Positions 1 to 29,957 are shown, counted from the stretch's first letter. The stretch: DNA of 64,000 bases from Phototrophicaceae bacterium (GCA_965205125.1 CBDBFY010000003.1:1240179-1304178), one strand, 5' to 3'. The notes: generated by a model not told the origin, from the sequence alone. Numbers and translations are program-made.

Positions 1-75
1 CGCGCTGGATATTTATTTGCTCTTTCGCGTGATCGTGCCGGGTTTGTCGCCTTGACAACAAGCTCAAACGCAGGC

Positions 76-101
76 GGGCGACCCAATGGCTCGCCCCTAC
101 A
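76..101 (-). repeat. REP-like palindromic element, family TGTAGGGGCGAC-loop-GTCGCCC (reverse orientation)
   Basis: gggcgacccaatggctcgcccctaca read directly. The same palindrome family recurs at many intergenic sites in this window. Confidence 0.8.
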
Positions 102-116
102 GCATTCTAAAGCAAT

Positions 117-680
117 CTATTTGCTGACGCGCGTGACGTACGCTTCTTCTTCGAGATTGATCTTGACCACGTCGCCTACGTTGATGAACATCGGCGCGCT
201 GACTTCAAAGCCGCTTTCCAGCTTGATCTTCTTGGTCGGGCTGTTGGCGGTATCACCGGCGACGGCGGCTTCCACCTCGACAACCGCGTATTCCATCGTC
301 TTCGGCAATTCGTAATCGATGATTTCGCCCTCATAGCTGAGCAGTTTGATCGCCATGCTGTCCTTGATGAACTTGAGATCATCGCCGAATATGGCCCGAT
401 TGAGCTGCGGCTGCTCGTATGTCTCCGTATTCATGAAAGTAACGAAGTCATCATCGGCGTAAAGGAATTCGACCGTGTTGGCCTCCACCCGAATATCCTC
501 CACCCGCTCGCCCGAGTTGTAGGTCATCTCAATCGTTGAGCCGCTGCGCAAATCCCGCACGGTCACGCGAATCGTCGCTTTGCCGCGCCCGGGTTTATGA
601 TGGCGGTATTCCATTACGCGATAGAGATTGCCATTCGCGGTGAATGTCGTGCCTTTGCGCAGTTGATTGACGTCTATCAT
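117..680 (-). CDS. efp: Elongation factor P
   Basis: ORF 117..791 trimmed to the ATG at 680 (MIDVNQLRKGTTF...). It has full-length EF-P architecture with the KPGRGKA tip loop. The 5' extension of the ORF overlaps the upstream gene and has no homology logic. Confidence 0.93.
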   Translation of the reverse strand: MIDVNQLRKGTTFTANGNLYRVMEYRHHKPGRGKATIRVTVRDLRSGSTIEMTYNSGERVEDIRVEANTVEFLYADDDFVTFMNTETYEQPQLNRAIFGDDLKFIKDSMAIKLLSYEGEIIDYELPKTMEYAVVEVEAAVAGDTANSPTKKIKLESGFEVSAPMFINVGDVVKINLEEEAYVTRVSK

Positions 681-756
681 CGGAGGTCCTGTCCTCAGCC
701 AGTATCGTTTGCCTAAGCACACCCAAGTATAACAGTGGTGGTCTCCGCCGCGTAGC

Positions 757-1143
757 CTACGATAACAGCAACGCCACCGCCTCCACCTCAATCAGCGCGC
801 CGATAGGCAAGCCGCCCGCCTGCACCGTCGTGCGCGCCGGCGGATCCTGCGGGAAGAACTCGCCGTAGACCGCGTTGAAAGCGGCAAAGTCCTGGATATC
901 GGCGAGGAAGACTGTTGTCTTGACGACCTTATCGAGCCCGCAGCCGGCCGCTTCCAGCACGCCCTTGATATTGTTCATGACTTGGCGCGTTTGCGCCTCG
1001 ATACCGCCGTCGCGAAGATCCGACGTGCCCGGGATGAGCGGGATTTGCCCGGCGGTGAAGACGAAGCCATTGGCGATAATGCCCTGCGAATAAGCGCCGA
1101 CGGCGGCCGGCGCGTTGCTGGTGGAGATGACTTGCTTTGGCAT
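757..1143 (-). CDS. RidA/YjgF/TdcF family reactive-intermediate deaminase
   Basis: 128 aa. Motifs AVGAYSQG, FVFTAGQIP, FLADIQDFAAFNAVYGEFF and PARTTVQAGGLPIGALIEVE are typical of RidA family proteins. Confidence 0.9.
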   Translation of the reverse strand: MPKQVISTSNAPAAVGAYSQGIIANGFVFTAGQIPLIPGTSDLRDGGIEAQTRQVMNNIKGVLEAAGCGLDKVVKTTVFLADIQDFAAFNAVYGEFFPQDPPARTTVQAGGLPIGALIEVEAVALLLS

Positions 1144-1191
1144 GTTCGTATCCTTTATAGCTTGTTGCCGGAGGTAGCTAAGTCTGCATTT

Positions 1192-1599
1192 TTAGTCTGA
1201 AGGCGGAGGCAATCCCGCGTCCACCCAACGTCGTCTCGCGCGGACGGCGCCGCGGCGGTTTATCCGCAAGCGCGACACAGTTGCCCTGCCCAACGCGGAC
1301 AGCCCGACCAGTTGCGTCTTCTCGTCGTCCCAGCGAAAGTGGTCGTTCCAATTTTGATTTCTAGGGTTGAACAAGGCAGTTTCAGGATCAATGGCAGCCA
1401 CAAAGTCGCGCTTGAACATGTTGCAACCGACACATGACAGACACAGATTGCTTAAGGATGTTTTGCCTTCGCGAGACACCGGGATAATATGATCGATTTC
1501 CATTTCGATCACGATAGTTTTTTGTGTCTGGCAGCATTCGCATTGACCTCGCGCCCGTTCAGTAATCTGTTGTCGCAGGCGGGCAGATATCCACGCCAC
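1192..1599 (-). CDS. HNH (His-Me finger) endonuclease, small stand-alone type
   Basis: CECC...DHIIPVSREG...NLCLSCVGCNMFK gives the CxxC / DH / N / CxxC HNH signature. The GTG start lies 3 nt after the stop of the upstream gene. Paralogue at 8225..8647. Confidence 0.85.
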   Translation of the reverse strand: MAWISARLRQQITERARGQCECCQTQKTIVIEMEIDHIIPVSREGKTSLSNLCLSCVGCNMFKRDFVAAIDPETALFNPRNQNWNDHFRWDDEKTQLVGLSALGRATVSRLRINRRGAVRARRRWVDAGLPPPSD

Positions 1600-1602
1600 T
1601 CG

Positions 1603-2007
1603 CTAAGCCCCAAGTTTGAGCAGTTTGTCGATATTGTGCCCGCGCCTTTTCATCTGAAGCAAAGCCTCTGAGCGCAACAGCACCTGATGATCAAACTTAG
1701 CGACCAAGTCCTCCATTTCGACGATCTCTTCCTCAGTGACCTGTCCCAATTGACCAAGCTGCATAAGTTCGCGCAGGCGCGTGTTGTGCGGCCAAGCCAA
1801 GCGCTGATGCACGACAGCTAACAATTGCTCGTCGCCAAAATCTTTCAACGCCTCCGGCTTTAGCGCCATATCAGTCAACTCGCCAAACAGCATAGCCAAG
1901 CTTTCCAGCAGCACGGATTCGGCAGTCCTATTGGTCTCGCCAGCGATTTCTTCCGCGCGCTCATAAATCGCAGCAGGCACTTTCAATTCCTTAGTCGGCT
2001 CTTGCAT
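1603..2007 (-). CDS. Helical protein of unknown function, upstream partner of the HNH nuclease
   Basis: 134 aa, ATG with GGAGG 10 nt upstream. The C-terminal motif DEQLLAVV...RLRELMQLGQLGQVTEEEIVEMEDLV...LLQMKRRG matches the repeat unit of the protein at 8644..9168. Confidence 0.7.
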   Translation of the reverse strand: MQEPTKELKVPAAIYERAEEIAGETNRTAESVLLESLAMLFGELTDMALKPEALKDFGDEQLLAVVHQRLAWPHNTRLRELMQLGQLGQVTEEEIVEMEDLVAKFDHQVLLRSEALLQMKRRGHNIDKLLKLGA

Positions 2008-2069
2008 AAGCCTTTGTCCTCCGCTTCGTCACATTCATTGTAACGGAGCAGCGCCAGCGCAGTTGTCCG

Positions 2070-3368
2070 CTATTTTCCCCGCCGCCCATGACAACGCTTG
2101 AACTTCAGCCCGCTGCCACAAGGGCAGGGATCATTTCGTCCCGCCGCCGCGAAAGCCCGCTCCAACTCGGCATCGTAGCGCGCCAACTCCAGCATCACAT
2201 TCGCCGGCGGTCGCCGCGCCGCCAATTCGCGCGCCATGAAATTCATCGTGGGGCGCACGTGATTGAAGAAGGCGCGATAACCGGCGCAGAGATAATTCAA
2301 GCCGGGCTCGCCAGCGGGGGTCTCAATGAAGCGATTCTTGGGGCAGCCGCCATTGCATACGAACTTCACTTCACAGTCAAGGCAATATTGCGGCAGCGTA
2401 TCGCGCTTGTCTTGGCCAAACTTGATCTGCTCATCCATCACCACGATATCGCTCAGCGGCACGTCCATGATGTTGCCCAATTTGTAATCGGGCTCGACAT
2501 AATGATCGCAGGAGAAGACATCGCCATTATGCTCCATCGCCAGCGCCAGGCCGCAGGTCTCGTCAAAGATGCAGAGCCCGGGCGGCGCGCCCGTCCAGGC
2601 GGCCAGCGCGATATCAAAGATCTGCACGAAGACCTGCCCAACATCGCGGCGCACCCACTCCTCGTACATATCGATCAGGAATTGCCCGTAACCCGCAGCG
2701 GTGATTGAGCGCTCGGTGACCTGGTCGCCCTCTTGATAACCGGTCTCATTATCGCGCTCGACGATGGGAATGAACTGCATGAACTTCGTACCGACTTCAT
2801 CACGCAGAAATTCATAAACGCGCGCGCCCTGCCCCTCGTTGGCGGCGTGCACCGTAGTCAGGATGTTGTATTCGGCGCCGTGCTTCTGCAGCAGCCGCAG
2901 CCCCGCCATCACTTTATCGAAGGTGGGATTGCCGCCCTTGTCCACGCGGTAGAAATCGTGCACATCAGCCGGACCATCGAGGCTGACCCCCAGCAGGAAG
3001 TCGTTGGCGGCGAAGAATTCGCACCATTCGTCATCCAGCGTGACCGCGTTCGTCTGCAGGGCGTTGGTGATGCGCATATGCGGGCGCTTGTGCTTCTGCT
3101 GATAACGGACCGCCTGCCGAAAGAATTCGACGCCCATCAAGGTCGGCTCGCCGCCCTGCCAAGCGAAATTGATGTCGTTGACCTGCTGCGCCTCGATGTA
3201 CTGGCGGATGTATTCTTCGAGCAAATTGTCCGACATGCGGAACTTGCTGCCGGGATAGAGCGCTTCTTTGGAGAGGAAATAGCAGTACTTGCAGTCGAGG
3301 TTGCAGATCGCGCCTCGCGGCTTGGTCATCAGGTGGAAAGCGGTGGGTTGTTGCGTGGTGGTTTGCAT
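2070..3368 (-). CDS. Anaerobic sulfatase-maturating enzyme (radical SAM/SPASM) with C-terminal SEC-C zinc motif
   Basis: ORF 2070..3596 trimmed to the ATG at 3368 (MQTTTQQPTAFHLMTKPRGAICNLDCKYCYF). It carries the CxxxCxxC radical SAM motif, Cys-rich SPASM region (CDHY..., CLDCEVKFVCNGGCPKNR) and terminal CPCGSGLKFKRCHG. Confidence 0.88.
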   Translation of the reverse strand: MQTTTQQPTAFHLMTKPRGAICNLDCKYCYFLSKEALYPGSKFRMSDNLLEEYIRQYIEAQQVNDINFAWQGGEPTLMGVEFFRQAVRYQQKHKRPHMRITNALQTNAVTLDDEWCEFFAANDFLLGVSLDGPADVHDFYRVDKGGNPTFDKVMAGLRLLQKHGAEYNILTTVHAANEGQGARVYEFLRDEVGTKFMQFIPIVERDNETGYQEGDQVTERSITAAGYGQFLIDMYEEWVRRDVGQVFVQIFDIALAAWTGAPPGLCIFDETCGLALAMEHNGDVFSCDHYVEPDYKLGNIMDVPLSDIVVMDEQIKFGQDKRDTLPQYCLDCEVKFVCNGGCPKNRFIETPAGEPGLNYLCAGYRAFFNHVRPTMNFMARELAARRPPANVMLELARYDAELERAFAAAGRNDPCPCGSGLKFKRCHGRRGK

Positions 3369-3392
3369 GGTGGGGAGTATAGCACGTTTTGG

Positions 3393-3427
3393 TTGAACAA
3401 CAGAGGACGCAGAGGGCGCGGAGAAAA
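3393..3427 (-). repeat. CTCYGYG-repeat / GTNAA promoter-like element (family copy A)
   Basis: The reverse complement reads ttttctccgcgccctctgcgtcctctgttgttcaa. It lies 25-60 nt upstream of the anSME start in sense orientation. Confidence 0.45.
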
Positions 3428-3490
3428 GCGGCGTTAGTGCGGATATGTTAGACTTGTGCCAGATTAGACACCACGATAGGAAAGCAACAG

Positions 3491-4540
3491 ATGAGCTTGT
3501 ACGACGAGTTGGCGAAGATTGGTCAACAGGTGAAGAGCCAGTTGCCGCAAATGAAGAATAACGAAAAGGCGACGATAAATGTGTCTGTACTGCCATTTAT
3601 CCGCGCGCTCGGCTACAACACCGAGGATCTCAGCGAAGTCTTTCCCGAGTATTCCATTCTTAATATGGATGCTGTCGACTACGCGGTTCTGCGTAATGAC
3701 GTGCCAGTTATGTTCGTTGAAGCAAAGTCGGCAGGCAACAAACTCCAAAACAAGGAATGGAAGCAACTCTTCCAATATTTCAATGCGGAAATCGGCTTGC
3801 CATTCGGCATCTTGACCAGCAGCGTCGAATACCGCTTTTACACCGATCTCGAAGCGGAAAATATTATGGACAAAGAGCCATTTCTCACCATTGATATGCT
3901 GAAGCTCGACGAGCGGCTGGTGGCCGAATTGGAAGGCTTAACAATGTCCGGCTTTGATCCCGAACGCGTCGTTGACGGTGCGAGGAAACGGGTCCTGGCG
4001 CGACTGTTGAATCAGGAAATGAACAATCCATCGGATGAAATTGCGCGGTACTTCGCGAAACAATTGACGACAAAGCGCTTGTCTTCCAATGAGTTACGAT
4101 ATTACGCGGGGTTGCTCGGTAAGGCTTGGCAAGGGTTGGTTGAGGCGAAGATTGGGCCAGTCCGGCCGATCGCAAATAATGGTGATAATAACCGGCCAAA
4201 GCCTCCGCCTCCACCCCCACCGCGCGAATTCATCCCAGTCTTTGGCTACTATGAAGGACACAAATTCAAAGGGGAACTGCTACGGACAAGTGTCGAAAAT
4301 GGATTGACCATTGCTGGCAATCAAATACGTTATAACGGAAAGACAACACGGCTTAAGGACGCGGCCATCATGGCCATACGTACCGTCGATCCGTCTTTTA
4401 AGCCGAAGAGAACCTATCCTAATGGATTCCAATTCTGGCATGTGGTTGACCCGGCCGATGGAAAGGAACACGAGATAAGATTTGTTTCTGGATGGGATGT
4501 GACGGACGAAGCGCTGCGTCAGCGTGTACTGTCGTCGTAG
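3491..4540 (+). CDS. PD-(D/E)XK nuclease (HsdR N-terminal-like) fused to Pro-rich linker and C-terminal reader-like (RAMA-like) domain, paralogue 1
   Basis: 349 aa. LPFIRALGY...PEYS...DAVDYAVLRNDVPVMFVEAKSAG...FGILTSSVEYRFY gives an E...D...ExK nuclease pattern. A PPPPPPP linker follows. The C-terminus has IPVFGYYEGHKFKGELL...NGFQFWHVVDPADGKEH. Confidence 0.8.
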   Translation: MSLYDELAKIGQQVKSQLPQMKNNEKATINVSVLPFIRALGYNTEDLSEVFPEYSILNMDAVDYAVLRNDVPVMFVEAKSAGNKLQNKEWKQLFQYFNAEIGLPFGILTSSVEYRFYTDLEAENIMDKEPFLTIDMLKLDERLVAELEGLTMSGFDPERVVDGARKRVLARLLNQEMNNPSDEIARYFAKQLTTKRLSSNELRYYAGLLGKAWQGLVEAKIGPVRPIANNGDNNRPKPPPPPPPREFIPVFGYYEGHKFKGELLRTSVENGLTIAGNQIRYNGKTTRLKDAAIMAIRTVDPSFKPKRTYPNGFQFWHVVDPADGKEHEIRFVSGWDVTDEALRQRVLSS

Positions 4541-4554
4541 CAAACTTTCGCCTA

Positions 4555-4589
4555 TCTTTGTGCCCTCCGTGCCAATAAATTAAATCCCC
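4555..4589 (+). repeat. CTCYGYG-repeat promoter-like element (family copy B)
   Basis: tctttgtgccctccgtgccaataaattaaatcccc. Homologous to 6941..6964 and lies upstream of the 4721 gene. Confidence 0.4.
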
Positions 4590-4591
4590 TT

Positions 4592-4614
4592 CCGCAACTT
4601 CGCCGTCACACTCC
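4592..4614 (+). repeat. Copy 1 of rluD 3'-end-like sequence (att-like direct repeat)
   Basis: ccgcaacttcgccgtcacactcc. 20 of 22 nt are identical to the true rluD 3' end at 7323..7344. Confidence 0.7.
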
Positions 4615-4720
4615 AAAAGACCGCCGGCTACTCGCGCGCCCGCGACTCGGAATCGGCAATTCTTCGCCGCTATGTTAAACTTTCGTTACCTTAACGCAGC
4701 AGCAGATCAGGCGATAACCA

Positions 4721-5806
4721 ATGGACCTAAACGAAAAACTGCAAAAGCTATCGGGCGAAGTCGAGTGGAGACTGCCCGCCGCGAAACGGAGCGAGGCAAA
4801 CACAAGTCAATTCCTGGTGATGCCGTTTTTCGACGCTCTCGGATACAACGTGCATAACCCTAAGCACGTCGAGCCTGAGTTCACGGCCGATGTCGGCATC
4901 CAGCGCGAAAAAGTAGACTTCGCGCTCAAGCAAGATGGCAATCCCGTTATACTGGTCGAAGTGAAATACGCGGGCGCAAGTCTTGATAACCAACACGCTG
5001 CACAGCTAAGGCGCTATTTCAGCACCAAGCTGGAAGTTCGCTTTGGCATACTCACTAACGGTCTCGATTTCCGCTTTTTCTCAGATCTCGAGAATCAGAA
5101 TGTCATGGACGACGAGCCATTTCTAACACTTGATTTGCAGAATCTCGATGAATCCTTGCTGCATGTATTGGAACAGTTTTCTAGAACAAGCTTTGAGAAG
5201 AACAACGCGATTCAGGCGGCGCGGTCGGCGAAAGACAGACAACGGGTGCGCCAGGTTATAAGCGCCGAATTTGACCCACTCTCAAAAGGGATCATAGACT
5301 ACCTTGTCGGTATTCTTCAGCCCGGCCGAATGTCGCAGACGCGGCGAAACGAGTTGACACACTTGGTCAAGCAGGAGTGGCGAGAGTTCATTCCTTTGCA
5401 GGGTTCACGAACAGATTCTGAAACTCACGAAGAGCCGCCAGAGCCAGAGCCCGTCAAGGCGGCTCCGACTCCCTCCCTGTTTCCACTTGACGGTTCTGTA
5501 AAGATTCCCATATTCGCGACGTTTAAGGGTCATGAATTCGAAGCAAAGCTGTCTCTATGGGGCTGGATACACCCAGCCGCAGCAATAGTCTTTTATGAGA
5601 ATGAGTGGTTGACGCCTTTGCAGGCGGGCATAAGAACGCGAGTTTCAGTTGATTCAAGCGCTGGATACTATGTTAATGGAATGAAATATTGGCACTTGCG
5701 TGATACAGCAAACGGGAAGTTGCGCCCGATTAACGACCTGAAGAATGACGAAGCACTACTGCGCCGTCTATTGGGCGGTAGCTCAGCAGCCTCCCCAGCA
5801 AAATAA
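4721..5806 (+). CDS. PD-(D/E)XK nuclease (HsdR N-terminal-like) fused to reader-like (RAMA-like) domain, paralogue 2
   Basis: 361 aa. MPFFDALGY...EPEFT...REKVDFALKQDGNPVILVEVKYAG...FGILTNGLDFRFF. The C-terminus has IPIFATFKGHEFEAKLS...NGMKYWHLRDTANGKL. Collinear with the 3491..4540 protein. Confidence 0.8.
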   Translation: MDLNEKLQKLSGEVEWRLPAAKRSEANTSQFLVMPFFDALGYNVHNPKHVEPEFTADVGIQREKVDFALKQDGNPVILVEVKYAGASLDNQHAAQLRRYFSTKLEVRFGILTNGLDFRFFSDLENQNVMDDEPFLTLDLQNLDESLLHVLEQFSRTSFEKNNAIQAARSAKDRQRVRQVISAEFDPLSKGIIDYLVGILQPGRMSQTRRNELTHLVKQEWREFIPLQGSRTDSETHEEPPEPEPVKAAPTPSLFPLDGSVKIPIFATFKGHEFEAKLSLWGWIHPAAAIVFYENEWLTPLQAGIRTRVSVDSSAGYYVNGMKYWHLRDTANGKLRPINDLKNDEALLRRLLGGSSAASPAK

Positions 5807-5869
5807 ACGTAAATCTCGGTACCCTCAGTAATTCCAAGTAAGTAATTGAAATTTGAATATAGTAACTGA

Positions 5870-6924
5870 ATGGAGAAAAAATCGAAATACCACTTGTCCG
5901 AAGTTCAGGTGCAAGTTCTGGAAAGAGCAATGCATAACGATGCTCGTGCTGAGGTGGCTCTGCGCTGCGCTGCTATACGCCAGTTGCATCTTGGCGAGAA
6001 GCCTTCTGATGTCGCCCAGCATTTTGTCGTCTGCAACACTACTGTATATCGATGGTGGAATCTTTATTGCGCAGGAGGAATTGAGGCTCTTAGCAATCGC
6101 TCCAAGTCGGGGCGTCCGCCAAAGACTGATGCGGCATATTGGCAGCGGTTGGAAGAGTTGATCGAGGAGGACCCGCGCGAGCATAACTATGTGTTCGTGG
6201 TTTGGACAACGGGTCGATTGCGGGACCATATGGAAGTTGAAACGGGTATTCGAATCAGTGCGGAATGGCTGCGCGAGCAAATGAAGAAACTGGGCTACGT
6301 CTTCCGGCGTCCCAAGAAGGATTTGCGCCATCTGCAAGATCCGCAGCAACGCGATGCAGCGGACAAATGGCTGAAAGACGCCAAAAAAAAGCCAGTGCCG
6401 CAGAGGATTTCGAGCTTCTCTTTGTGGACGAAAGCACCGTGACACAAGATTTCTCAATTCGCGCATGTTGGATGAAACGCGGAAAACAGAAGCGCCTACC
6501 AGCGCCGCCTGGCGCCAATGCCTTTCACCATGTGATCGGAGCGCTGAACTGGCGCAGCCAACAGGTCGCCTACACCATCGTAAAAACCAAGAACAGCGAG
6601 ACCTTTATCGAGTTTCTTGAATATCTGCTTCATGTCGCCTATCCGCAAGAGCGGGTTGTCCTGGTCATGGACAATGCGCCATGGCATCGCAGCCACGCGG
6701 TACAAGCCATGCTCAGCCTATACGAAAGTCGGGTGCTGGTCATTTGCTTGCCACCTTATTGCCCAATGCTCAATCCCATCGAGCGATTCTGGCGTCATAT
6801 GAAAGACAAAGCCTATGCCAACACCCTATACAAGTCGATGAATGACTTGCTCGAAAAGGTCCAAGAAGTGCTATCAGCACAGAACACAATCGGCCACCCC
6901 TTACGGATGCAATTTGTTGCATGA
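5870..6924 (+). CDS. IS630-family DDE transposase, two frames joined by a -1 frameshift
   Basis: ORF 5870..6442 encodes the HTH part (SDVAQHFVVCNTTVYRWW). ORF 6265..6924 encodes the DDE part (LLFVDES..., VLVMDNAPWH..., LPPYCPMLNPIERFW). The frames differ by -1 and overlap at the A8 run. Confidence 0.85.
6383..6390 (+). other. Slippery A8 run, candidate programmed -1 ribosomal frameshift site of the IS630 transposase
   Basis: gcc aaa aaa aag in frame 0 (DAKKK). A -1 slip gives ...KKASAAEDFELLFVDES, which continues into the DDE domain. Confidence 0.65.
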
Positions 6925-6940
6925 CTTACTTGGTGTTACT

Positions 6941-6964
6941 TCTGTGCCTCTGTGGTGAATCCCC
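6941..6964 (+). repeat. CTCYGYG-repeat promoter-like element (family copy C)
   Basis: tctgtgcctctgtggtgaatcccc, upstream of the 7080 gene. Confidence 0.4.
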
Positions 6965-6969
6965 ACCTA

Positions 6970-6991
6970 CCGCAGCTTCGCCATCACACTC
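6970..6991 (+). repeat. Copy 2 of rluD 3'-end sequence (att-like direct repeat)
   Basis: ccgcagcttcgccatcacactc is identical (22 of 22 nt) to 7323..7344. Confidence 0.8.
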
Positions 6992-7079
6992 GGCGGCGCG
7001 AGACATGATTGACAACCATGCCGCGGCGACCTACAATTGCGACGTATAGTCGCAAGCATGACCCGACGAGGAGAGACGT

Positions 7080-7319
7080 ATGGCAGTTCAAAGCAACGTC
7101 GAAGACGACTTTGTCCACGAGACCGTCAGCCGCCAGGTCGAACAAATTGCAAAACTAGAGGCTAGCCATGAGCATATGGCCAGTAAGGCAGATATTGAAT
7201 CTCTCCGTACTGAGATGGAAAAGCTGAAATCGGACTTGACCTGGAGAATCGTCATCGCCATGAGTATTATGACAGCCATCTTTGCCGCGATTGTTAGACT
7301 GCCGGCAGCAGGTGCATAG
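7080..7319 (+). CDS. Small coiled-coil protein with C-terminal TM helix (DUF1640-like)
   Basis: 79 aa, GAGGAGA 5 nt upstream of the ATG. ASKADIESLRTEMEKLKSDLTWRIVIAMSIMTAIFAAIV resembles DUF1640-type tail-anchored coiled-coil proteins. Confidence 0.6.
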   Translation: MAVQSNVEDDFVHETVSRQVEQIAKLEASHEHMASKADIESLRTEMEKLKSDLTWRIVIAMSIMTAIFAAIVRLPAAGA

Positions 7320-8243
7320 TCACCGCAGCTTCGCCATCACACTCCGCAACCCCACCGGCAACTCGCTCACGAAAACCAGCCGCTCACCACTCACCGGATG
7401 GTCAAAGGCCAACTCATGCGCGTGCAGGAACTGCCGCTTCATTTTCACTCGCTGCTTCCGATACCCGTAGACCGCATCCCCCACAACGGGACAGCCGATG
7501 AATGCCATGTGCACACGAATCTGATGCGTCCGTCCGGTCAGCAGCTTCAAGCGCACAAGAGCGCGATCGCCCTGGAAGTCATCATCGAGCACTTCGAATT
7601 CGGTCTGCGCCGACTTGCCCGCTCGATGGACCGCCATGCGTTTGCGCTGCCGCGGATCGCGGGCGACTGGCGCGTCGACCGTGCCTCGATTCGACGCCGG
7701 CCGCTTCTCCAGCAGGGCCAGATAAATCTTGTCCACCGTCCGCGCTTGAAACTGCCCCATCAGCGCCAGCAGTGTCGCCCTGTCGCGAGCCGTGACAATC
7801 AGTCCGCTTGTGCCCCGATCCAGCCGGTGGACGATGCCCAGCCGCTCGCCGACCGCCGGGTCGTCCATCATATCCGCCAGTTCCGGGTAGCGCGCCAGCA
7901 GCGCATTGACCAGCGTTCCGCTCTCGTTGCCCGCTCCGGGATGAACCACCATGCCGGCCCGCTTGTCAATGACCGCCAGGTCTGCGTCCTCATAGACGAT
8001 GTTTAGCGGAATGTCTTCCGGCTCTATCGAGGTCTCCTCCTTCGGCGGAAAGCGCACGGTGATCTGCTCGCCGCCTTTGAGTTTGTAGCCCGTCTTTTGC
8101 GCCGCGCCATCAACCAGGACGCAGCCCTCGCGGATCAGAGCCTGCGTCTGCGCGCGCGAAAAGCCTTCCAGATGCGCCAGGAGGAATTTGTCGAGACGTT
8201 GATTCGGTCTGTCTACGAGGAGGGTTAGGAAGTCTTCTGGCAC
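7320..8243 (-). CDS. rluD: RluA-family 23S rRNA pseudouridine synthase, RluD-like (S4 domain + catalytic HRLD)
   Basis: 307 aa. QRLDKFLLAHLEGFSRAQTQALIREGCVLVDG is the S4 domain. HRLDRGTSGLIV is the catalytic Asp motif, with HQIRVH also present. Confidence 0.88.
   Translation of the reverse strand: MPEDFLTLLVDRPNQRLDKFLLAHLEGFSRAQTQALIREGCVLVDGAAQKTGYKLKGGEQITVRFPPKEETSIEPEDIPLNIVYEDADLAVIDKRAGMVVHPGAGNESGTLVNALLARYPELADMMDDPAVGERLGIVHRLDRGTSGLIVTARDRATLLALMGQFQARTVDKIYLALLEKRPASNRGTVDAPVARDPRQRKRMAVHRAGKSAQTEFEVLDDDFQGDRALVRLKLLTGRTHQIRVHMAFIGCPVVGDAVYGYRKQRVKMKRQFLHAHELAFDHPVSGERLVFVSELPVGLRSVMAKLR
7323..7344 (+). repeat. Copy 3 (the genuine rluD 3' coding end) of the triplicated sequence
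   Basis: ccgcagcttcgccatcacactc encodes the C-terminal SVMAKLR on the minus strand. Confidence 0.8.
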
Positions 8244-8647
8244 GGGTAGTTGCCCAGCAGGTATTCCCTAAAACGTTGCCGAATGCGAGAAGCGGCATTC
8301 ATTCGCAGAACGAATACTGTTGTCCGACCTTCGGGAGTAAGACCAATAATCGACGCATCTGGATTGACACGAAAATGTTCATCCCAGCTATCCAATCGCG
8401 GATGAAACAGTCTACTTAGTTTGTCGGTTTGTGGGTCATATCCAGCAACATTGACGCCCTTGAAGCGGTTGCAATCCGGGCAAGCCAGGCAAAGATTCTC
8501 ATCGTTGTCATCACCTCCATGACTACTCGCAATGATATGATCAACGTGAAATCCTAGAGATTGGGATCCTCTTCCAACGCGACAGTATTCGCAGCACCCT
8601 GACGCCAGAATGTGAACTGTATGACGCTGCTGCGCAGAGATCGTCAA
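8225..8647 (-). CDS. HNH (His-Me finger) endonuclease, paralogue of 1192..1599
   Basis: CCEYC...VDHIIASSHGGDDNDENLCLACPDCNRFKG. Collinear with the HNH at 1192..1599, including LFHPR..W..HF and GLTPEGRTTV. The TTG start overlaps the upstream stop (TTGA). Confidence 0.85.
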   Translation of the reverse strand: MTISAQQRHTVHILASGCCEYCRVGRGSQSLGFHVDHIIASSHGGDDNDENLCLACPDCNRFKGVNVAGYDPQTDKLSRLFHPRLDSWDEHFRVNPDASIIGLTPEGRTTVFVLRMNAASRIRQRFREYLLGNYPCQKTS

Positions 8648-9168
8648 GTCTCAATACCTTGCCGTCTCAACTCAGTACTCACTTTCAGCAGCGCCATGAA
8701 TCTGTTTGCTCGAAGGCAATCGTCCAACTCGCGCTCTTCGAGTATAGTCAGCTCACCCTCGCCGTTGCGGTCGAGTAGAAAATGAACTCGCGCCTGTATG
8801 TCTTCGGGAAACATAAATGCGAGTAATTCATCATCTGTAGGATCAGAAGTCAAGAACTCAGCTACTGCATCAGGAGCACTTCGCACTGGCGAATCATTCA
8901 AGGGTTCTTCTCGTCTGTTCTTGCCCTTTTGCCGCAACCTAATCTTTGTTTTGAGCAGACTAATCATGTTGTCGGCATATACGAAGTCATCTAACTCATT
9001 TCGCTGCTCACAGGTCAACTCGGATTCCCGATTGAGGTACAGCAGATGGCTCACGCGCTTTTGCAGATCATCCGGCAGCTTATAGGCGAGAAGCTCGTCA
9101 ACTGTTGGGTCATCCGCAAGAAAGTCGGTAATGACGGCAAAGACATCACGTGCTGGCGTTTCTATCAT
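8644..9168 (-). CDS. Helical two-repeat protein of unknown function, upstream partner of the HNH nuclease
   Basis: 174 aa, AAGGAG 8 nt upstream of the ATG. It holds two internal ~70-aa repeats: DELLAYKLPDDLQKRVSHLLYLNRESELTCEQRNELDDFV and DELLAFMFPEDIQARVHFLLDRNGEGELTILEERELDDCL. Confidence 0.75.
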   Translation of the reverse strand: MIETPARDVFAVITDFLADDPTVDELLAYKLPDDLQKRVSHLLYLNRESELTCEQRNELDDFVYADNMISLLKTKIRLRQKGKNRREEPLNDSPVRSAPDAVAEFLTSDPTDDELLAFMFPEDIQARVHFLLDRNGEGELTILEERELDDCLRANRFMALLKVSTELRRQGIET

Positions 9169-9231
9169 GGCAGTTGCTCCTTTACCTCCGGCCCATTATA
9201 ACCTGAAGTCAAACAAGATTCAGCAAGCGCG

Positions 9232-9417
9232 CTACACGCCGCCCAGCGCCGAGCTCAAAAGCGCGGCAATCGTGCCGGCGACCACAATCGCCAACAGCAA
9301 GATCAAGCCCATGCGGACCAACTGGCGCAAAGCCTGCCGCTCCGCCGGCGTCCAGCCTGCCTCCCTTTCGCGTTCGTCCGTCTGCTTCATCGCTAGCTCA
9401 TCAACATCGATTGACAT
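9232..9417 (-). CDS. Possible small tail-anchored membrane protein
   Basis: MSIDVDELAMKQTDEREREAGWTPAERQALRQLVRMGLILLLAIVVAGTIAALL. It is coding-like with a hydrophobic C-terminus, but there is no clear RBS and the start is uncertain. Confidence 0.3.
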   Translation of the reverse strand: MSIDVDELAMKQTDEREREAGWTPAERQALRQLVRMGLILLLAIVVAGTIAALLSSALGGV

Positions 9418-9549
9418 TGCTGTCAGCAGCAGGTCGTCCACGCACAATTATATACGCTTGACAGTCTGTGTTGACGCGGATGGCTTGCCCAAGATATTCG
9501 ACCAAAGCCAAAGTAAGTTATACTTTGCTGCTGGGCAGGGAGAATGCGA

Positions 9550-10536
9550 ATGAAAGTCCTGGTGACCGGCGGCGCTGGTTATATCGGCAGCCATGTCGTG
9601 CAGTTGCTTACCGAGCGCGGCTATGAAGTCGTCGTCTTCGACAACTTGATCAAGGGCAATCGCGGCGCCGTGCACCCGGACGCGACCCTGATCGTCGGCG
9701 ATCTGCACGATCGCTCGGCGTTGGAAGCCGCCTTCCATGCCCATCAGTTCGACGGCATCTTGCACTTCGCCTCGCAGATCCTGGTCGGTGAAAGCATGCG
9801 GCAGCCCTTCGGCTACCTGCGCGACAATCTCTATACCTTCATCAATGTGCTCGAATGCGCCAGCCTGCACGGCGTCAAGCGCATTATTCTATCCTCCACC
9901 GCCAATCTCTTCGATGAACCAGAGCGCGTCCCCATCGACGAGAGCGAGGCGCTGATCCCCGGCAGCATCTATGGCGAAACCAAGTACATGGCGGAGCGCT
10001 TGCTCGCCTGGATGGATCGGCTCTACGGCATAAAATACTGCTGCCTGCGCTATTTCAATGCCTGCGGCGCCCATCCAGACGGGCATATCGGTGAAGCGCA
10101 CGACCCCGAATCGCATCTGATTCCCCTCGTTTTGAGCGTCGCTCTGGGCCAGCGCGAGGCAATCGAAATCTACGGCGCCGATTATGACACGCCCGATGGC
10201 ACCTGCATCCGTGATTACGTGCATGTTCTTGATCTGGCGCGCGCCCACATCCTGGCATTGGAAGCGCTGGTCGATGGCGAAAGCCGCGTCTACAACCTCG
10301 GCAGCGGCAGCGGCTATTCCGTGCGCGAAGTGATAGAAGCCGCGCGGGAGGTGACGGGCCACGCCATCCCCACCATTGATGCGCCCCGCCGCCCCGGCGA
10401 CCTGCCCGTCCTCGTCGCCGATAGCGAGAAGATCGGGCGCGAGCTGGGCTGGGAGACCGACTTCAACAACCTCGAGACCATCATCCAAACCGCCTGGAAT
10501 TGGCATCGCCGGCATCCTCACGGCTACGAATCCTGA
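9550..10536 (+). CDS. galE: UDP-glucose 4-epimerase
   Basis: [15 protein letters not shown] Rossmann motif, YGETKYMAE (YxxxK) and full-length GalE pattern. GGGAGA lies 6 nt upstream of the ATG at 9550 (alternative ATG at 9544). Confidence 0.92.
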
Positions 10537-10590
10537 GTGGTGAAAAAGCGCGCCCGCCTTGTATCAGCTTCTGTTGAAGGAGGAGCTGAT

Positions 10591-11472
10591 ATGACACGCT
10601 TGGCTGTTTTGGCTGATATTCACGGCAACCTGCCCGCATTAACTGCCGTCATTGACGACATGGCGCCATTCGAGGTCGATCACGTCGTCGTCGCCGGCGA
10701 CAGCATCAATGTCGGTCCCTTTTCCCGCGAAGTGCTGGAAGCCATCAGCGAACGAAACTGGGCGATCATCCGCGGCAATAACGGATACTATGTCACCGAG
10801 TACAATACGCCGCGCATGCCGGCGCACTGGACCCGCTTTACCCTGCCCCCATGGCTGCTTGAGCAGTTAGGCGCCCACTGGATCAAGGTCATCGCCTGCC
10901 TGCCGGATACGCTCTCGCTGCGCTTCCCCGACGCCGCGCCGGTTCGCGTCTTCCACGGCCTTCCCGATAACCCCTGGGTCGCCATTACGCCGCTGTCGAC
11001 CCGCGACGAGGTCGAATCCGCCTTGGTCGACGTGCCGGAAGAGACGGTCATCTGCGCCCACAGCCACATCCCGCTGGAGCGGCATATCGGGAACTGGCAT
11101 ATCTTCAACCCGGGATCAGTCGGCATCCCGCTCGACGGTGAACGCAGCGCCAGCTACATGATACTTGACGGCGACCACCAGGGCTGGAAGCTGATCGCCC
11201 ATCGCCGCGTGCATTTCTGTCATGACAGCATATTCGACGCCTTTGACAAACAGCAATTCGCGCAGCGCTGCGGCGTTACGGCGATGCTGCTGGCGCAAGA
11301 ATTTGAGACCGCTCGCATGAGGCTGTGGCCCTTCCTCCAATGGAAGAAGCGCTTCTATCCCGATCAACCCGAAAGCGTCTCGCTCTTTGACGAGTTTCAG
11401 CGCCTGCAAGACACGCGTCCCTTCATGCCGCCCGAATATCGCGATCTGACGCCCGACCTGTACCGCGACTGA
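10591..11472 (+). CDS. Metallophosphoesterase family protein
   Basis: LAVLADIHGN, VVAGDSIN, RGNNG, CAHSHIPL and NPGSVG motifs. The ATG at 10591 is preceded by GAAGGAGGAG. Confidence 0.85.
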   Translation: MTRLAVLADIHGNLPALTAVIDDMAPFEVDHVVVAGDSINVGPFSREVLEAISERNWAIIRGNNGYYVTEYNTPRMPAHWTRFTLPPWLLEQLGAHWIKVIACLPDTLSLRFPDAAPVRVFHGLPDNPWVAITPLSTRDEVESALVDVPEETVICAHSHIPLERHIGNWHIFNPGSVGIPLDGERSASYMILDGDHQGWKLIAHRRVHFCHDSIFDAFDKQQFAQRCGVTAMLLAQEFETARMRLWPFLQWKKRFYPDQPESVSLFDEFQRLQDTRPFMPPEYRDLTPDLYRD

Positions 11473-11528
11473 TTGCGCTTCACATGATAAAATGAGTACG
11501 CTGAAAAGCTTGGAAAACGGACCAGCCC

Positions 11529-11801
11529 ATGTGCCGCAACATTCGTACGCTCTTCAACTACGACCCGCCCAGCAGTCCCGCCGATGTCGAAGCGGCGGCG
11601 CTGCAATATGTGCGCAAAGTCAGCGGTTACCGTTCGCCTTCCGCCGCCAACGAAGCCGCCTTCCAGCGGGCGGTCGCCGATATCGCGGCTGCGACAGCGA
11701 CCCTGCTCGATTCTCTTGCGACGAAAGCCCCGCCCCGCGATCGCCAAGCCGAAATCGCCAAAGCCCGCGCCCGCAACGCCAAGCGCTTCCGGACGGCATA
11801 A
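11529..11801 (+). CDS. DUF2277 family protein
   Basis: MCRNIRTLFNYDPPSSPADVEAAALQYVRKVSGY is the characteristic DUF2277 N-terminus. Confidence 0.8.
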   Translation: MCRNIRTLFNYDPPSSPADVEAAALQYVRKVSGYRSPSAANEAAFQRAVADIAAATATLLDSLATKAPPRDRQAEIAKARARNAKRFRTA

Positions 11802-11891
11802 GCCGTTTACAGCCCCCAAGCCCTGCGCTAGACTACGGCTGGAAACAGCAGCGCCTGACGGGAAACGGCAATGGCACTCAGCGGTGAATCC

Positions 11892-12908
11892 ATGCGCGCC
11901 ATCATCATGGAGAATATCGGCAAACCGCGCGTTCTCAAGGTGACGAGAATCCGCAAACCGACGCCGGCGCCGGGCCAAGCCCTGATTAAAGTCCATGCCA
12001 CCTCCGTCAACCCCTGCGATATGCATTTGCGCAGCGGCCGCCTGATCATCCGCAAGCCGATGCCGCATATCCTGGGCGCTGACCTGGCCGGCGAAATCGA
12101 AGCGCTCGCCGATGACGTCAAGGGCTGGGAGATCGGCGCCCGCGTCTTCGCTTGCCCCGAGGGGCTGGGGCGCGAAATCAATGGGGGCTATGCCGAGTAT
12201 TGCGCCGTGCCAGCCGACCACTTGATCCCGCTGCCGAACGAGCTCGATTTCCAATCGGCTGTGGCCGCTGGCGCCAGTTTCACCGATGCCCATCTCGCCC
12301 TCCTGTCCGTTGGCAAACTGAAAAAAGCGGACCGGGTCGTTGTGCGCGGCGCGGCCGGGAGCGTCGGCGCATCCGCCCTTCAAATCGCACGCGCGCGTGG
12401 CGCCAAAGTCATCGCCATCAGCCGTGGCCAGTTCGCCGCCGGACTGCATGAAATCGGCGCGGACGTCGTGCTCGAAGATGTCGGTGATGATCTGGTGCGC
12501 CAGGTTAAGGTGGCCACTGATGAGCGCGGCGCCAGCCTCGTCCTTCATTGTCGCGACGAACTTGACCTGGCGGAATCACTGGCGATGCTCGGGCGCGGCG
12601 GCCGGCTTGTCATTGCTGGCGTCCTGCGCAAGCCACAAGCCCGTCTGGACGCCATGGACCTCTACTTGAGAAACCTCAGCATCCTCGGCTCATACGGCGC
12701 CATCAAGCCCAAAGACGGCGAATCTCTGCTAAGAAATCTGGCGAAGGGCGCCTACAAACCGCTGGTGGACCAGGTTATGCCCCTGAGCCAGGCGCGCAAA
12801 GCCCACCGCAAAATGGAAAAAGAGCCCGGCTTTGGCAAGATTGTGCTGGCGCCGGATTCCATCCTGGAAGCGGCGCAGAAACCCGACAATTGGATCCCGA
12901 TTGATTAG
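11892..12908 (+). CDS. Zinc-type alcohol dehydrogenase / quinone oxidoreductase (MDR superfamily)
   Basis: MRAIIMENIGKPRVLKV..., NPCDMHLRSG, and GAAGSVGASALQIARARGAKVIA as the nucleotide-binding motif. An alternative ATG lies at 11871. Confidence 0.85.
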   Translation: MRAIIMENIGKPRVLKVTRIRKPTPAPGQALIKVHATSVNPCDMHLRSGRLIIRKPMPHILGADLAGEIEALADDVKGWEIGARVFACPEGLGREINGGYAEYCAVPADHLIPLPNELDFQSAVAAGASFTDAHLALLSVGKLKKADRVVVRGAAGSVGASALQIARARGAKVIAISRGQFAAGLHEIGADVVLEDVGDDLVRQVKVATDERGASLVLHCRDELDLAESLAMLGRGGRLVIAGVLRKPQARLDAMDLYLRNLSILGSYGAIKPKDGESLLRNLAKGAYKPLVDQVMPLSQARKAHRKMEKEPGFGKIVLAPDSILEAAQKPDNWIPID

Positions 12909-28988: not shown

Positions 28989-29957
28989 CTATTCGAATTC
29001 CAACGAATTCAACCCCAATAGACTGTAGTATTCGGCCTTGCGTTCGGCGTCATGCAAAATGTCTTCGACCGTAAACAAGTAGTTCACGCTAAGTCGGCTT
29101 GACTCGATATCGCTCCTAGCTTGCGCAGAAAGAGAAACGGCAGTCATGACAAGAATGGTGATTGCGCCTGGGCTATTCTCTTTCGAACGACGCAAACTCT
29201 TTATCGCCGCGCCGACTCGCTCAAGAACTCCCGCCGGATCGATACCGCCTTTCACTTCCACCGCGGCCTGAATCCTACCCTTTGTGAAGACCTCGATATC
29301 CGGTTCTGATCCCATCCGAACAATACGTCCATCGACGAGATTCAATTCCACTACTCGAGTCCTTATGTCCACCGCGTAGTCGTTCTCGATCAAGCCGACG
29401 CGGTATAACTGAGACACCAAATCCTGCCTCATAATCTCTTCAATGAGATCGCCTTTTCTATTCTGCCAAGATCCCTGCGCCTGGGATCCGGCTGCCATTC
29501 CGCGCCACAAGTCAAACTCGCGTAATTCTATTTCTTGATCCTGTTCAATCAACGCGCAAATCAGCATATTCAGCCGTCGGGCAATGCGGTGCGCAGCCTC
29601 AGTGCTTGGTAGGCGCTCTGTCTGCTCGTATTGAGTTGAAGCAAGACCTATCTGACTCATAGACTTCTGTGACACCATCGACAACATTCTGTAATAGCCC
29701 ACCGAGCGATTTACATTTGTCAATACCGCCGGATGCGCAAATATAATAATGGGCTTGATTCCGCTGTGGATAATCCTATTCCAAGCCATTTCGGAAACAT
29801 TTAGCTCAGGCAAATCCCAAGAAAGTGTTTCACCTGAAATCGCTTCTATCTTCTGCGCCACTTCCAAGAGCTGCCATTCATGAAGACGCTGATGGAAGAA
29901 CAAACTTTTCTGTAACTGGTCAAGCGCCCACGCTTGCTGTTTTTCACTTTGCATCAC
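28989..29957 (-). CDS. Type II restriction endonuclease candidate (PD-(D/E)XK)
   Basis: 322 aa. GSEPDIEVFTKGRIQAAVEVKGG is a classic PD-x15-E-x-K motif. The gene overlaps the upstream methyltransferase gene by 11-14 nt and is AT-richer than its flanks. The start is GTG at 29957 or ATG at 29954. Confidence 0.7.
   Translation of the reverse strand: MMQSEKQQAWALDQLQKSLFFHQRLHEWQLLEVAQKIEAISGETLSWDLPELNVSEMAWNRIIHSGIKPIIIFAHPAVLTNVNRSVGYYRMLSMVSQKSMSQIGLASTQYEQTERLPSTEAAHRIARRLNMLICALIEQDQEIELREFDLWRGMAAGSQAQGSWQNRKGDLIEEIMRQDLVSQLYRVGLIENDYAVDIRTRVVELNLVDGRIVRMGSEPDIEVFTKGRIQAAVEVKGGIDPAGVLERVGAAIKSLRRSKENSPGAITILVMTAVSLSAQARSDIESSRLSVNYLFTVEDILHDAERKAEYYSLLGLNSLEFE

Follow-up and report, generated by a model that had tools for sequence, protein, structure and literature searches.

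A variable array of predicted HsdR-N-type nuclease genes with exchangeable C-terminal domains beside rluD in Phototrophicaceae and related Chloroflexota

Results

Two paralogous genes between a radical-SAM gene and rluD

The subject of this study is a pair of adjacent genes, P1 and P2, in a 64,000-nucleotide (nt) stretch of DNA from a Phototrophicaceae bacterium (GCA_965205125.1 CBDBFY010000003.1:1240179-1304178); this whole stretch is called the window, and positions are counted from its first letter. A first-pass annotation, made from the sequence alone, described P1 and P2 as diverged copies of a nuclease gene, each fused to a reader-like domain and without a methylase, and proposed that together they form an undescribed stand-alone defence module. 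We find that P1 and P2 are two members of a tandem array of predicted PD-(D/E)XK nucleases that varies from genome to genome at a fixed position beside rluD, and that the C-terminal domain has been exchanged between nuclease cores; defence against foreign DNA would most likely be the role of the array.

Both open reading frames (ORFs) have the coordinates and lengths that the annotation gave them (Table 1), and the paralogy that it had noted by eye is real: the proteins align end to end by BLASTP with 30% identity over 361 aligned columns (E = 4e-50), with 33% identity in the N-terminal parts and 30-31% in the C-terminal domain. The motif strings that it quoted, PEYS..DAVDYAVLRNDVPVMFVEAKSAG in P1 and EPEFT..REKVDFALKQDGNPVILVEVKYAG in P2, are found in the translations, as is the run of seven prolines in the P1 linker. 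The three-part build that it claimed for each protein is seen in the AlphaFold2 model of P2 (55 homologues as input; mean predicted local distance difference test score, pLDDT, 87.7); four parts are resolved in this model, that is, a nuclease domain, a helical middle region, a linker and a C-terminal domain, and the linker is disordered (pLDDT < 50 at aa 234-257).

The region is AT-richer than its surroundings, again as first described (G+C 0.47-0.54 across ~3250-7250 vs 0.56-0.65 in the nearer flanks). In the listed ORF set the radical-SAM gene extends to 3596, that is, ~76 codons further and over the start of P1; the start at 3368 fits the homologues (432-434 aa), and positions 3369-3490 are intergenic and form a divergent promoter region between the radical-SAM gene and P1. 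Scans for promoters and terminators returned numbers of sites that were not above those in shuffled sequence.

Table 1. Features of the window discussed in the text (positions in the window unless amino acids, aa, are stated).
Feature	Position	Strand	Description
P1 (cassette gene 1)	3491..4540	+	349-aa ORF
P1 protein parts	aa, approximate		nuclease 1-135; helical middle 136-228; Pro-rich linker 229-245; C-terminal domain 246-349
Seven consecutive Pro codons in P1 linker	4202-4222	+	aa 238-244, from translation
P2 (cassette gene 2)	4721..5806	+	361-aa ORF
P2 protein parts	aa, approximate		nuclease 1-138; helical middle 139-232; acidic Pro-rich linker 233-258; C-terminal domain 259-353
Radical-SAM/SPASM/SEC-C gene (anchor)	2070..3368	-	Pfam; 82-96% identity across related loci
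rluD-type pseudouridine synthase gene (anchor)	7320..8243	-	PseudoU_synth_2 + S4; 68-87% identity across related loci
R source (rluD 3' end)	from 7320		annotated repeat copy 7322-7347
R copy i1, in P1-P2 spacer	about 4589-4637		degenerate, older; ~75% over 48-nt core, 91% over best 23 nt
R copy i2	6969-6994		96% over 26 nt, 100% over 23 nt; closes P2 cassette, precedes p79, after the insertion sequence
p79	7080..7319	+	79 aa; coiled coil + hydrophobic tail; sub-threshold CCDC90-like match
IS630-type element	5827..6940	+	HTH_32/33/29 ORF + DDE_3 ORF; not part of the system
HNH+p134 module	1192-2007	-	135-aa HNH + 134-aa protein without Pfam match; at radical-SAM gene 3' end
HNH+p174 module	8225-9168	-	140-aa HNH + 174-aa protein; directly upstream of rluD
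Type II restriction-modification pair	28989-31434	-	~23 kb from P1/P2; nearest methyltransferase

The N-terminal part is predicted to be an HsdR-N-type nuclease

P1 and P2 both exceed the curated Pfam cut-offs for HSDR_N (45.2 and 51.4 bits, respectively; cut-off 25.1) and HSDR_N_2 (28.3 and 41.5 bits; cut-off 25), and both families are matched by all of the 94 diverse homologues that we collected (94/94). None of these homologues departs from E25, D63, E77 or K79 (P1 numbering), and E53, Q92 and Y96 are each retained in at least 90%; in 55 close homologues the equivalents D66, E80, K82, Q95 and Y99 never vary. Q92 and Y96 form the QxxxY motif that is described for HsdR nuclease domains. When the P2 model was used as the Foldseek query, the matches included an HsdR fragment (3h1t, E 6e-4) and DrdV (7lvv_C, E 8e-4) as well as Cas4 (4r5q), the HsdR subunit of EcoR124I, and BpuSI. 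By profile, modelled fold and catalytic residues, we assign the N-terminus of both proteins as an HsdR-N-type PD-(D/E)XK nuclease domain, predicted to cleave DNA; the first-pass annotation had proposed this type from the order of the acidic and Lys residues, and the Pfam scan, the structure model with Foldseek and the D...ExK conservation in the 94 homologues all agree with it. The conservation of D...ExK and QxxxY implies that the catalytic apparatus is intact in both copies and strongly constrained.

No ATPase domain was detected in P1 or P2 in the Pfam scan or in the P2 model. We considered and rejected the possibility that they are HsdR subunits of a type I system, given their size (349 and 361 aa), the lack of an SF2 motor, and the lack of an adjoining N6_Mtase or Methylase_S gene in the window and in the syntenic loci; because motor and hsdM/hsdS partners are both missing, the database name 'type I restriction endonuclease' is a mislabel at the level of the domain. 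The partial matches in PADLOC were to mad2 (E 7.7e-7, P2 aa 48-130) and to REase_MTase_IIG (E 0.0016 and 0.028); the mad2 model also matches a methyltransferase of the window, so mad2 appears to be a nuclease-methylase fusion.

The claim that the genes lack an adjacent methylase, ATPase or specificity partner was upheld in the window and in the syntenic loci: no methyltransferase, ATPase or specificity gene adjoins P1 or P2, and none lies within ~10 kb in the syntenic relatives. The nearest methyltransferase, ~24 kb away, belongs to the type II restriction-modification pair (Table 1); it has 496 aa, matches PADLOC MTase_II (E 6e-142) and Pfam N6_N4_Mtase, and contains DPFSGAST and SPPY motifs. 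We rejected it as a partner of P1 and P2 because it has its own adjoining restriction enzyme (322 aa, REase_II E 2e-7), which overlaps the 3' end of the methyltransferase gene by 14 nt.

The rluD slot is a variable cassette array

We compared the window with 20 related Chloroflexota loci (Phototrophicaceae, Aggregatilineales and Anaerolineae metagenome-assembled genomes; L001-L015 and L017-L020 share the slot). The gene order is largely shared by 19 of the 20: on one side efp, ridA, (HNH+p134) and the radical-SAM gene, then the nuclease slot, and beyond the slot rluD, (HNH+p174), an epimerase, a metallophosphatase, DUF2277 and an ADH gene, as well as holB; genes in parentheses are modules that come and go, as described below. 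The slot, that is, the interval from the radical-SAM gene to rluD, holds one to four tandem copies of the family in these 19 loci: one in six loci, two in most, and three or four in L001, L019 and L020. Some of the copies carry a different C-terminal domain, and a tree of the cores contains several deep sub-lineages that are combined differently from genome to genome. Most flanking proteins share 80-96% identity with their counterparts in the window, whereas the cassette proteins share only 31-71% with P1 or P2; P2 has orthologues at 45-71% identity in nine related loci, and the closest relatives of P1 reach only 55-56%.

The variable copy number and the differing mixtures of sub-lineages imply that P1 and P2 are independent cassettes. 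The proposal of a two-gene system therefore did not hold, given the one to four copies per slot over 19 loci, the varied sub-lineage mixes and the many single copies, and we rejected an obligate two-gene system on the same counts. The first-pass annotation had also regarded placement in conserved housekeeping synteny as an argument against a defence role; such synteny is formally present, but the slot within it varies as an array, so we do not take the defence role as refuted.

Core and C-terminal domain have discordant histories

Several homologues are mosaics. The N-terminus of P0022, the copy in L007, is 31% identical to P1 and 72% identical to P2, whereas its C-terminus is 73-74% identical to P1 and 33% identical to P2; P0020 has the same arrangement (N-terminus 37% P1, 76% P2; C-terminus 66% P1, 34% P2), and P0122 has the reverse (N-terminus 62% P1, 37% P2; C-terminus 36% P1, 59% P2). 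A sliding-window comparison places the switch point at ~226-250, that is, in the low-complexity linker, and the helical middle region moves together with the nuclease. Judged from these identities, the history of the nuclease core differs from that of the C-terminal domain, which has evidently been exchanged between cores. The domain also evolves faster: P2 orthologues are 59-64% identical in it, compared with 74-81% in the N-terminal part.

The C-terminal domain is an unclassified alpha/beta module

The isolated C-terminal domain (~95 aa) was modelled with a pLDDT of 92.4 as an alpha/beta domain in which a pair of long antiparallel strands is accompanied by four short ones and by three or four helices. 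It is basic (isoelectric point 9.0-9.4); its one invariant Trp belongs to the motif NG(W/M/F).(F/Y)W, and a strand, IPV(F/Y), is conserved; the P1 domain matches the hidden Markov model of the family. Within our sample, full-length proteins with this type of domain are found only in Chloroflexota, and in some metagenomic relatives the domain is present as a tandem double (P0155, P0144 and P0156).

The domain also accounts for the whole of four short proteins (P0141, P0160, P0262 and P0263; 99-172 aa), which may be stand-alone domain genes or pieces of disrupted genes; a search of a large database with the C-terminal-domain alignment recovered four short proteins only and no further architectures.

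The first-pass annotation had likened this domain to the RAMA domains of restriction-modification proteins, a resemblance that we find at the level of the motif, with no profile or structure support above threshold. Neither P1 nor P2 matches Pfam RAMA (PF18755) at E up to 1. Sub-threshold RAMA matches were obtained for 12 of 44 diverse C-terminal domains (best E 0.003), with any other family matching two at most; in the match that we inspected in detail the score was 13.7 bits vs a cut-off of 35.2, and the aligned segment, model positions 75-98, is the Trp motif only. When the domain was compared by hhalign with a DUF4357 profile made from 11 sequences of this nuclease family, E was 0.056 and the probability ~1%, with only NG..W aligned; a 2-sequence DUF4357 (PF14267) profile gave no significant match. 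The solved RAMA structures, 6PBD (CcrM) and 7YDT/7YDW (MPND), are not among the best 50 of 92 Foldseek matches to the model. A SAND-like signal is weak (Foldseek probability 0.82 for the whole protein and 0.35 for the isolated domain; template-modelling (TM) scores 0.41-0.51), and no link between RAMA and SAND was found in the literature searched. We therefore best describe the C-terminal domain as an unclassified small alpha/beta module with a motif-level tie to RAMA.

An hmmsearch of PDB sequences with the C-terminal-domain profile gave nothing significant. The sole PDB sequence touched was chain 9jsb_D (DREN-APAZ, a short-Argonaute partner), in which residues 205-234 include the segment VINGGTFWSFHDPRTS (E 0.3); despite the identical motif, this match is probably due to chance.

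Duplicated rluD ends bound the cassettes

The att-like repeats that had been reported around the genes are real and are copies of the 3' end of rluD (Table 1). The repeat, which we call R, starts exactly at the rluD stop codon and runs 20-75 nt into the coding end. Copies of R follow cassette genes in the window and in 12 of the 18 related loci tested (E < 0.001); examples are L020, where the distinctive rluD end of that genome recurs in two internal copies at ~98% identity, L004 (75 nt, 85%), L011 and L012. The rluD end of the same genome is the best match for 8 of 16 internal copies; the copy L004_i1 is 94% identical to the rluD end of L003 vs 81% to its own. These comparisons suggest that some cassettes came in along with the rluD end of a donor.

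We rejected the possibility that R is a terminator or structured RNA (fold z-scores -1.4 to +1.05; no Rfam or tRNA match in 1-12000). The simplest reading of the footprints is repeated insertion through recombination at the duplicated gene end, which might be of the Campbell type or an unequal crossover; no integrase or recombinase gene was found within the slot, either in the window or in the annotated syntenic loci.

The slot is also used by a gene unrelated to the nucleases. p79 is present in L007, L008, L012, L015 and L017 at 68-84% identity, and the order R-p79-rluD is common to the window, L007, L012 and L015; the R copy before p79 implies that an unrelated cassette uses the identical insertion point.

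A family found in many phyla

An exhaustive search with P1 identified 3,316 representatives (50% identity) at E <= 0.001, distributed over many phyla. The part conserved throughout the family is the first ~224 residues, that is, the nuclease and the helical region. The C-terminal types in our sample include a cross-phylum type with 182 members, without a Pfam match, and the type of the window's clade with 134; a common origin of these two domains was considered and rejected (hhalign E 0.26). Rarer C-terminal tails include DUF4357, DUF4268, SeqA_C, TerD and HEPN_Swt1; in P0258 a genuine DUF4357 (50.9 bits vs a cut-off of 38.4) occupies the same C-terminal position.

In the cross-phylum loci the gene is usually single, with two copies in only 1 of 62 (L047). 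The 115 immediate neighbours in 60 of these loci include no recurrent partner, with any one family matched by five at most: they comprise five serine recombinases, two integrases, two transposases, scattered matches to defence genes and ordinary metabolic genes, and the 25 families listed for them contain no methyltransferase family. The nuclease core is also encoded in 19 phage records and 68 plasmids; in Streptococcus phage IPP25 the gene is located in the lysogeny module, with a repressor on one side and an integrase on the other.

Several relatives are labelled 'predicted type IV restriction endonuclease' by the Joint Genome Institute, a naming with which the type IV-like reading of the nuclease core agrees, and COG4748 and COG2810 are grouped with HSDR_N and among the restriction endonucleases in comparative surveys (PMC3424549, PMC8649781). 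'Undescribed' was too strong a word for the core, whose family numbers more than 3,000 representatives and already figures in lists of putative restriction endonucleases. Known already are the core family, as predicted and uncharacterised, and nuclease-plus-reader fusions without a methylase (PMC4738411, PMC11037411); new here are the unclassified C-terminal module, its shuffling between cores, and the tandem array bounded by duplicated gene ends.

Other elements at the locus

The IS630 and both flanking HNH genes reported for the locus are present. The IS630-type element has 20-nt terminal inverted repeats (5827-5846 and 6921-6940) and a transposase in two overlapping frames (HTH ORF 5870-6442, DDE_3 ORF 6265-6924); the split implies that a frameshift is needed or that the element is inactivated. 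Its insertion point is the ~47-nt spacer from the P2 stop codon to the following R copy, and it is absent from this position in all 20 related loci (20/20).

The HNH+p134 module is a presence/absence insertion: six loci are empty, and two modules are stacked in L007. Its edges in L004, L007, L013 and L019 are 36-77-nt direct copies (95-100%) of the 3' end of the radical-SAM gene, and loci without any part of the module have just a 108-487-nt gap at that site; the bounding repeat is not detectable in the window itself. The HNH+p174 module is missing from some relatives and doubled in L007; in the window its HNH gene (140 aa) overlaps the start of rluD by 19 nt, and p174 looks like an internal duplication of a ~85-aa unit. 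A functional tie of the cassettes to the HNH modules was rejected because several loci carry cassettes without HNH modules, and a tie to the radical-SAM gene because that gene is highly conserved, does not co-vary with the cassettes, and is not among the 25 cross-phylum neighbour families listed.

Discussion

Stand-alone restriction is the favoured explanation

We regard it as an even call that P1 and P2 are independent, stand-alone restriction-type endonucleases in which the C-terminal domain picks the target, the host lacks the recognised feature (likeliest modified bases), and two cassettes widen the coverage. Each protein would be a metal-dependent PD-(D/E)XK nuclease joined by the helical middle region and the flexible linker to a basic targeting domain. 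Because there is no motor, methyltransferase or specificity subunit, the proteins probably act alone, on DNA with a feature that is absent from the host; they would presumably do so as dimers, like other nucleases of the fold. Modified bases would be the likeliest such feature, and the logic would then be that of a type IV or type IIM enzyme, as in DpnI. The swapping, fast divergence and duplication of the C-terminal domain are the behaviour expected of an exchangeable target-recognition module, and selection of the DNA target is its most likely function. New cassettes would join the slot by recombination that duplicates the rluD end, C-terminal domains would be swapped at the linker, and two cassettes with different C-terminal domains would broaden the target range. 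A defence-like, accessory character of the genes is suggested by the variable number of copies (one to four), the divergence of the cassettes, the low G+C, the copies on phages and plasmids, the recombinase neighbours, and the naming of relatives as restriction enzymes.

Several observations weigh against this explanation. The C-terminal domain is not tied to any known reader or DNA-binding fold: Foldseek with its model found nothing in the PDB at E up to 0.001 (best match SAND 1oqj, E 1.5, TM 0.41-0.45) and no match in the BFVD viral structure library. Even for genuine RAMA domains, structures show binding to the DNA backbone and a preference for N6-methyladenine was not confirmed (PMC9963953, PMC11037411). 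Modification dependence is argued solely from the lack of a linked methylase. PADLOC-DB 2.0.0 contains no significant whole-protein match for P1 or P2, its weak matches being confined to the nuclease domain, and the literature searched holds no experimental evidence of cleavage or defence for any member of the family. Finally, the locus is set among housekeeping genes of conserved order, and its inheritance appears to be vertical throughout the clade, which would fit a cellular role also.

Such a cellular role would make P1 and P2 housekeeping nucleases for DNA repair, recombination or nucleic-acid processing, paralogues that split cellular tasks at a fixed core position. At least one copy is present in 19 of the 20 related loci, among housekeeping genes (efp, ridA and the radical-SAM gene on one side; rluD, epimerase and holB on the other), and the catalytic residues are strongly constrained. 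But copy number, sub-lineage and C-terminal type differ between close genomes with flanks mostly 80-96% identical, and such divergence and shuffling of modules would be unusual for housekeeping enzymes; across phyla the core has no conserved neighbourhood and is found in phage records and plasmids, and we judge this role quite improbable. It is also improbable that the enzymes are type II-like and blocked by modification, or otherwise self-sparing, so that a protecting methyltransferase encoded elsewhere or another form of self-protection spares the host and modified DNA is not the target. Classical type I and type IIG/IIL enzymes, whose substrate is unmodified DNA, do use HSDR_N-type domains (EcoR124I, BpuSI and DrdV; REase_MTase_IIG and mad2 in PADLOC), and the host encodes a DNA methyltransferase, that of its type II pair. 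However, a linked methylase is found neither in the 19 related loci nor among the families listed for the 115 cross-phylum neighbours; cassettes that are often gained, lost and recombined would kill on arrival without a co-transferred methylase; and for the phage and plasmid copies, the match rows and the one locus inspected show no methylase annotation at or next to the match.

We think it unlikely, too, that the cassettes are selfish mobile units, that is, that the nuclease acts like a homing or addiction element to insert or keep itself at the 3' end of rluD, the array being a record of repeated invasion and not of selection for immunity. The copy of the rluD 3' end that bounds each cassette is like the att repeats of elements that restore a gene end; some internal R copies, such as L004_i1, are closer to the rluD end of another genome; the HNH+p134 module, with its copies of the radical-SAM 3' end, comes and goes; and relatives of the core lie beside recombinases and on phages and plasmids. 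Against this, p79 uses the same insertion point without a nuclease, so the cassette nuclease is not needed for insertion, and the slot has no integrase or recombinase. Continued exchange and diversification of the targeting domain would be unexpected for a homing nuclease whose target is fixed, and the catalytic residues are kept in every copy examined; selfishness and defence are in any case compatible.

An extension of the favoured stand-alone restriction reading is that the slot is an integrase-free rack of innate-immunity nucleases and unrelated small cassettes, stacked through duplicated rluD ends and with targeting domains reshuffled at the linker. The rack would provide a heritable, expandable repertoire of specificities that needs no methyltransferase, the C-terminal module would be an unclassified DNA-reading fold, and the same mechanism would move the HNH modules. 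Taken as a whole, this picture is possible but doubtful.

The family is large, with more than 3,000 representatives at 50% identity, and its members are routinely labelled putative restriction enzymes, although their characterisation is absent from the literature searched. The locus provides a natural experiment in which a single site carries one to four copies of one nuclease core with exchangeable C-terminal domains, so the idea that the domain sets the target is directly testable. The array suggests a way to build and diversify defence loci without a dedicated recombinase, and the three unrelated types of cassette bounded by duplicated gene ends bear on the formation of defence islands generally. 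If the C-terminal domain does read DNA modification, a new fold or a very distant branch of RAMA would be added to the short list of readers.

Comparison with known systems

A close likeness is to the stand-alone HSDR_N proteins of the COG4748/COG2810 type, named 'type I restriction endonuclease' by NCBI. These share the ~224 N-terminal residues with the invariant E...D...ExK and QxxxY, and they too are about 350-385 aa long and encoded by single genes with no conserved partner. Most of them, however, carry another C-terminal domain without detectable homology, whereas that of the window was found, in our sample, only in Chloroflexota and occurs in a tandem array.

Fusions of a restriction endonuclease to RAMA (PMC4738411) and the RAMA/DUF4357 fusions (PMC11037411) likewise combine a nuclease with a small proposed DNA reader and have no methylase. 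Within the family, the P0258 branch bears a genuine DUF4357, and the NG(W).(F/W)W motif and the number of structural elements resemble the description of RAMA (PMC9963953). The difference is that membership of the window's domain in RAMA is motif-level and below threshold.

DpnI has a PD-(D/E)XK catalytic domain and a separate domain that senses DNA modification. P1 and P2 resemble such type IIM or type IV two-domain enzymes (winged-helix fusions, PMC11037411), as compared by description and not by homology, in that one polypeptide joins a PD-(D/E)XK domain to a small C-terminal domain that is known to bind DNA in those enzymes and is proposed to do so here; such enzymes need neither methylase nor ATPase, as we propose for P1 and P2. 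They differ in that the nuclease of P1 and P2 is of the HsdR-N type, with an extra helical middle region and another, unclassified C-terminal fold.

The immigration control region of E. coli is a variable restriction locus at a fixed position, and genomic islands also stack at the 3' ends of genes with repeated att sites. The rluD slot resembles both, with variable restriction-type content in a conserved frame and with direct repeats of the 3' end of the target gene separating the units. It differs in that it has no integrase, its repeats are 20-75 nt of a protein-coding end and not of a tRNA gene, and it stacks a single family one to four times.

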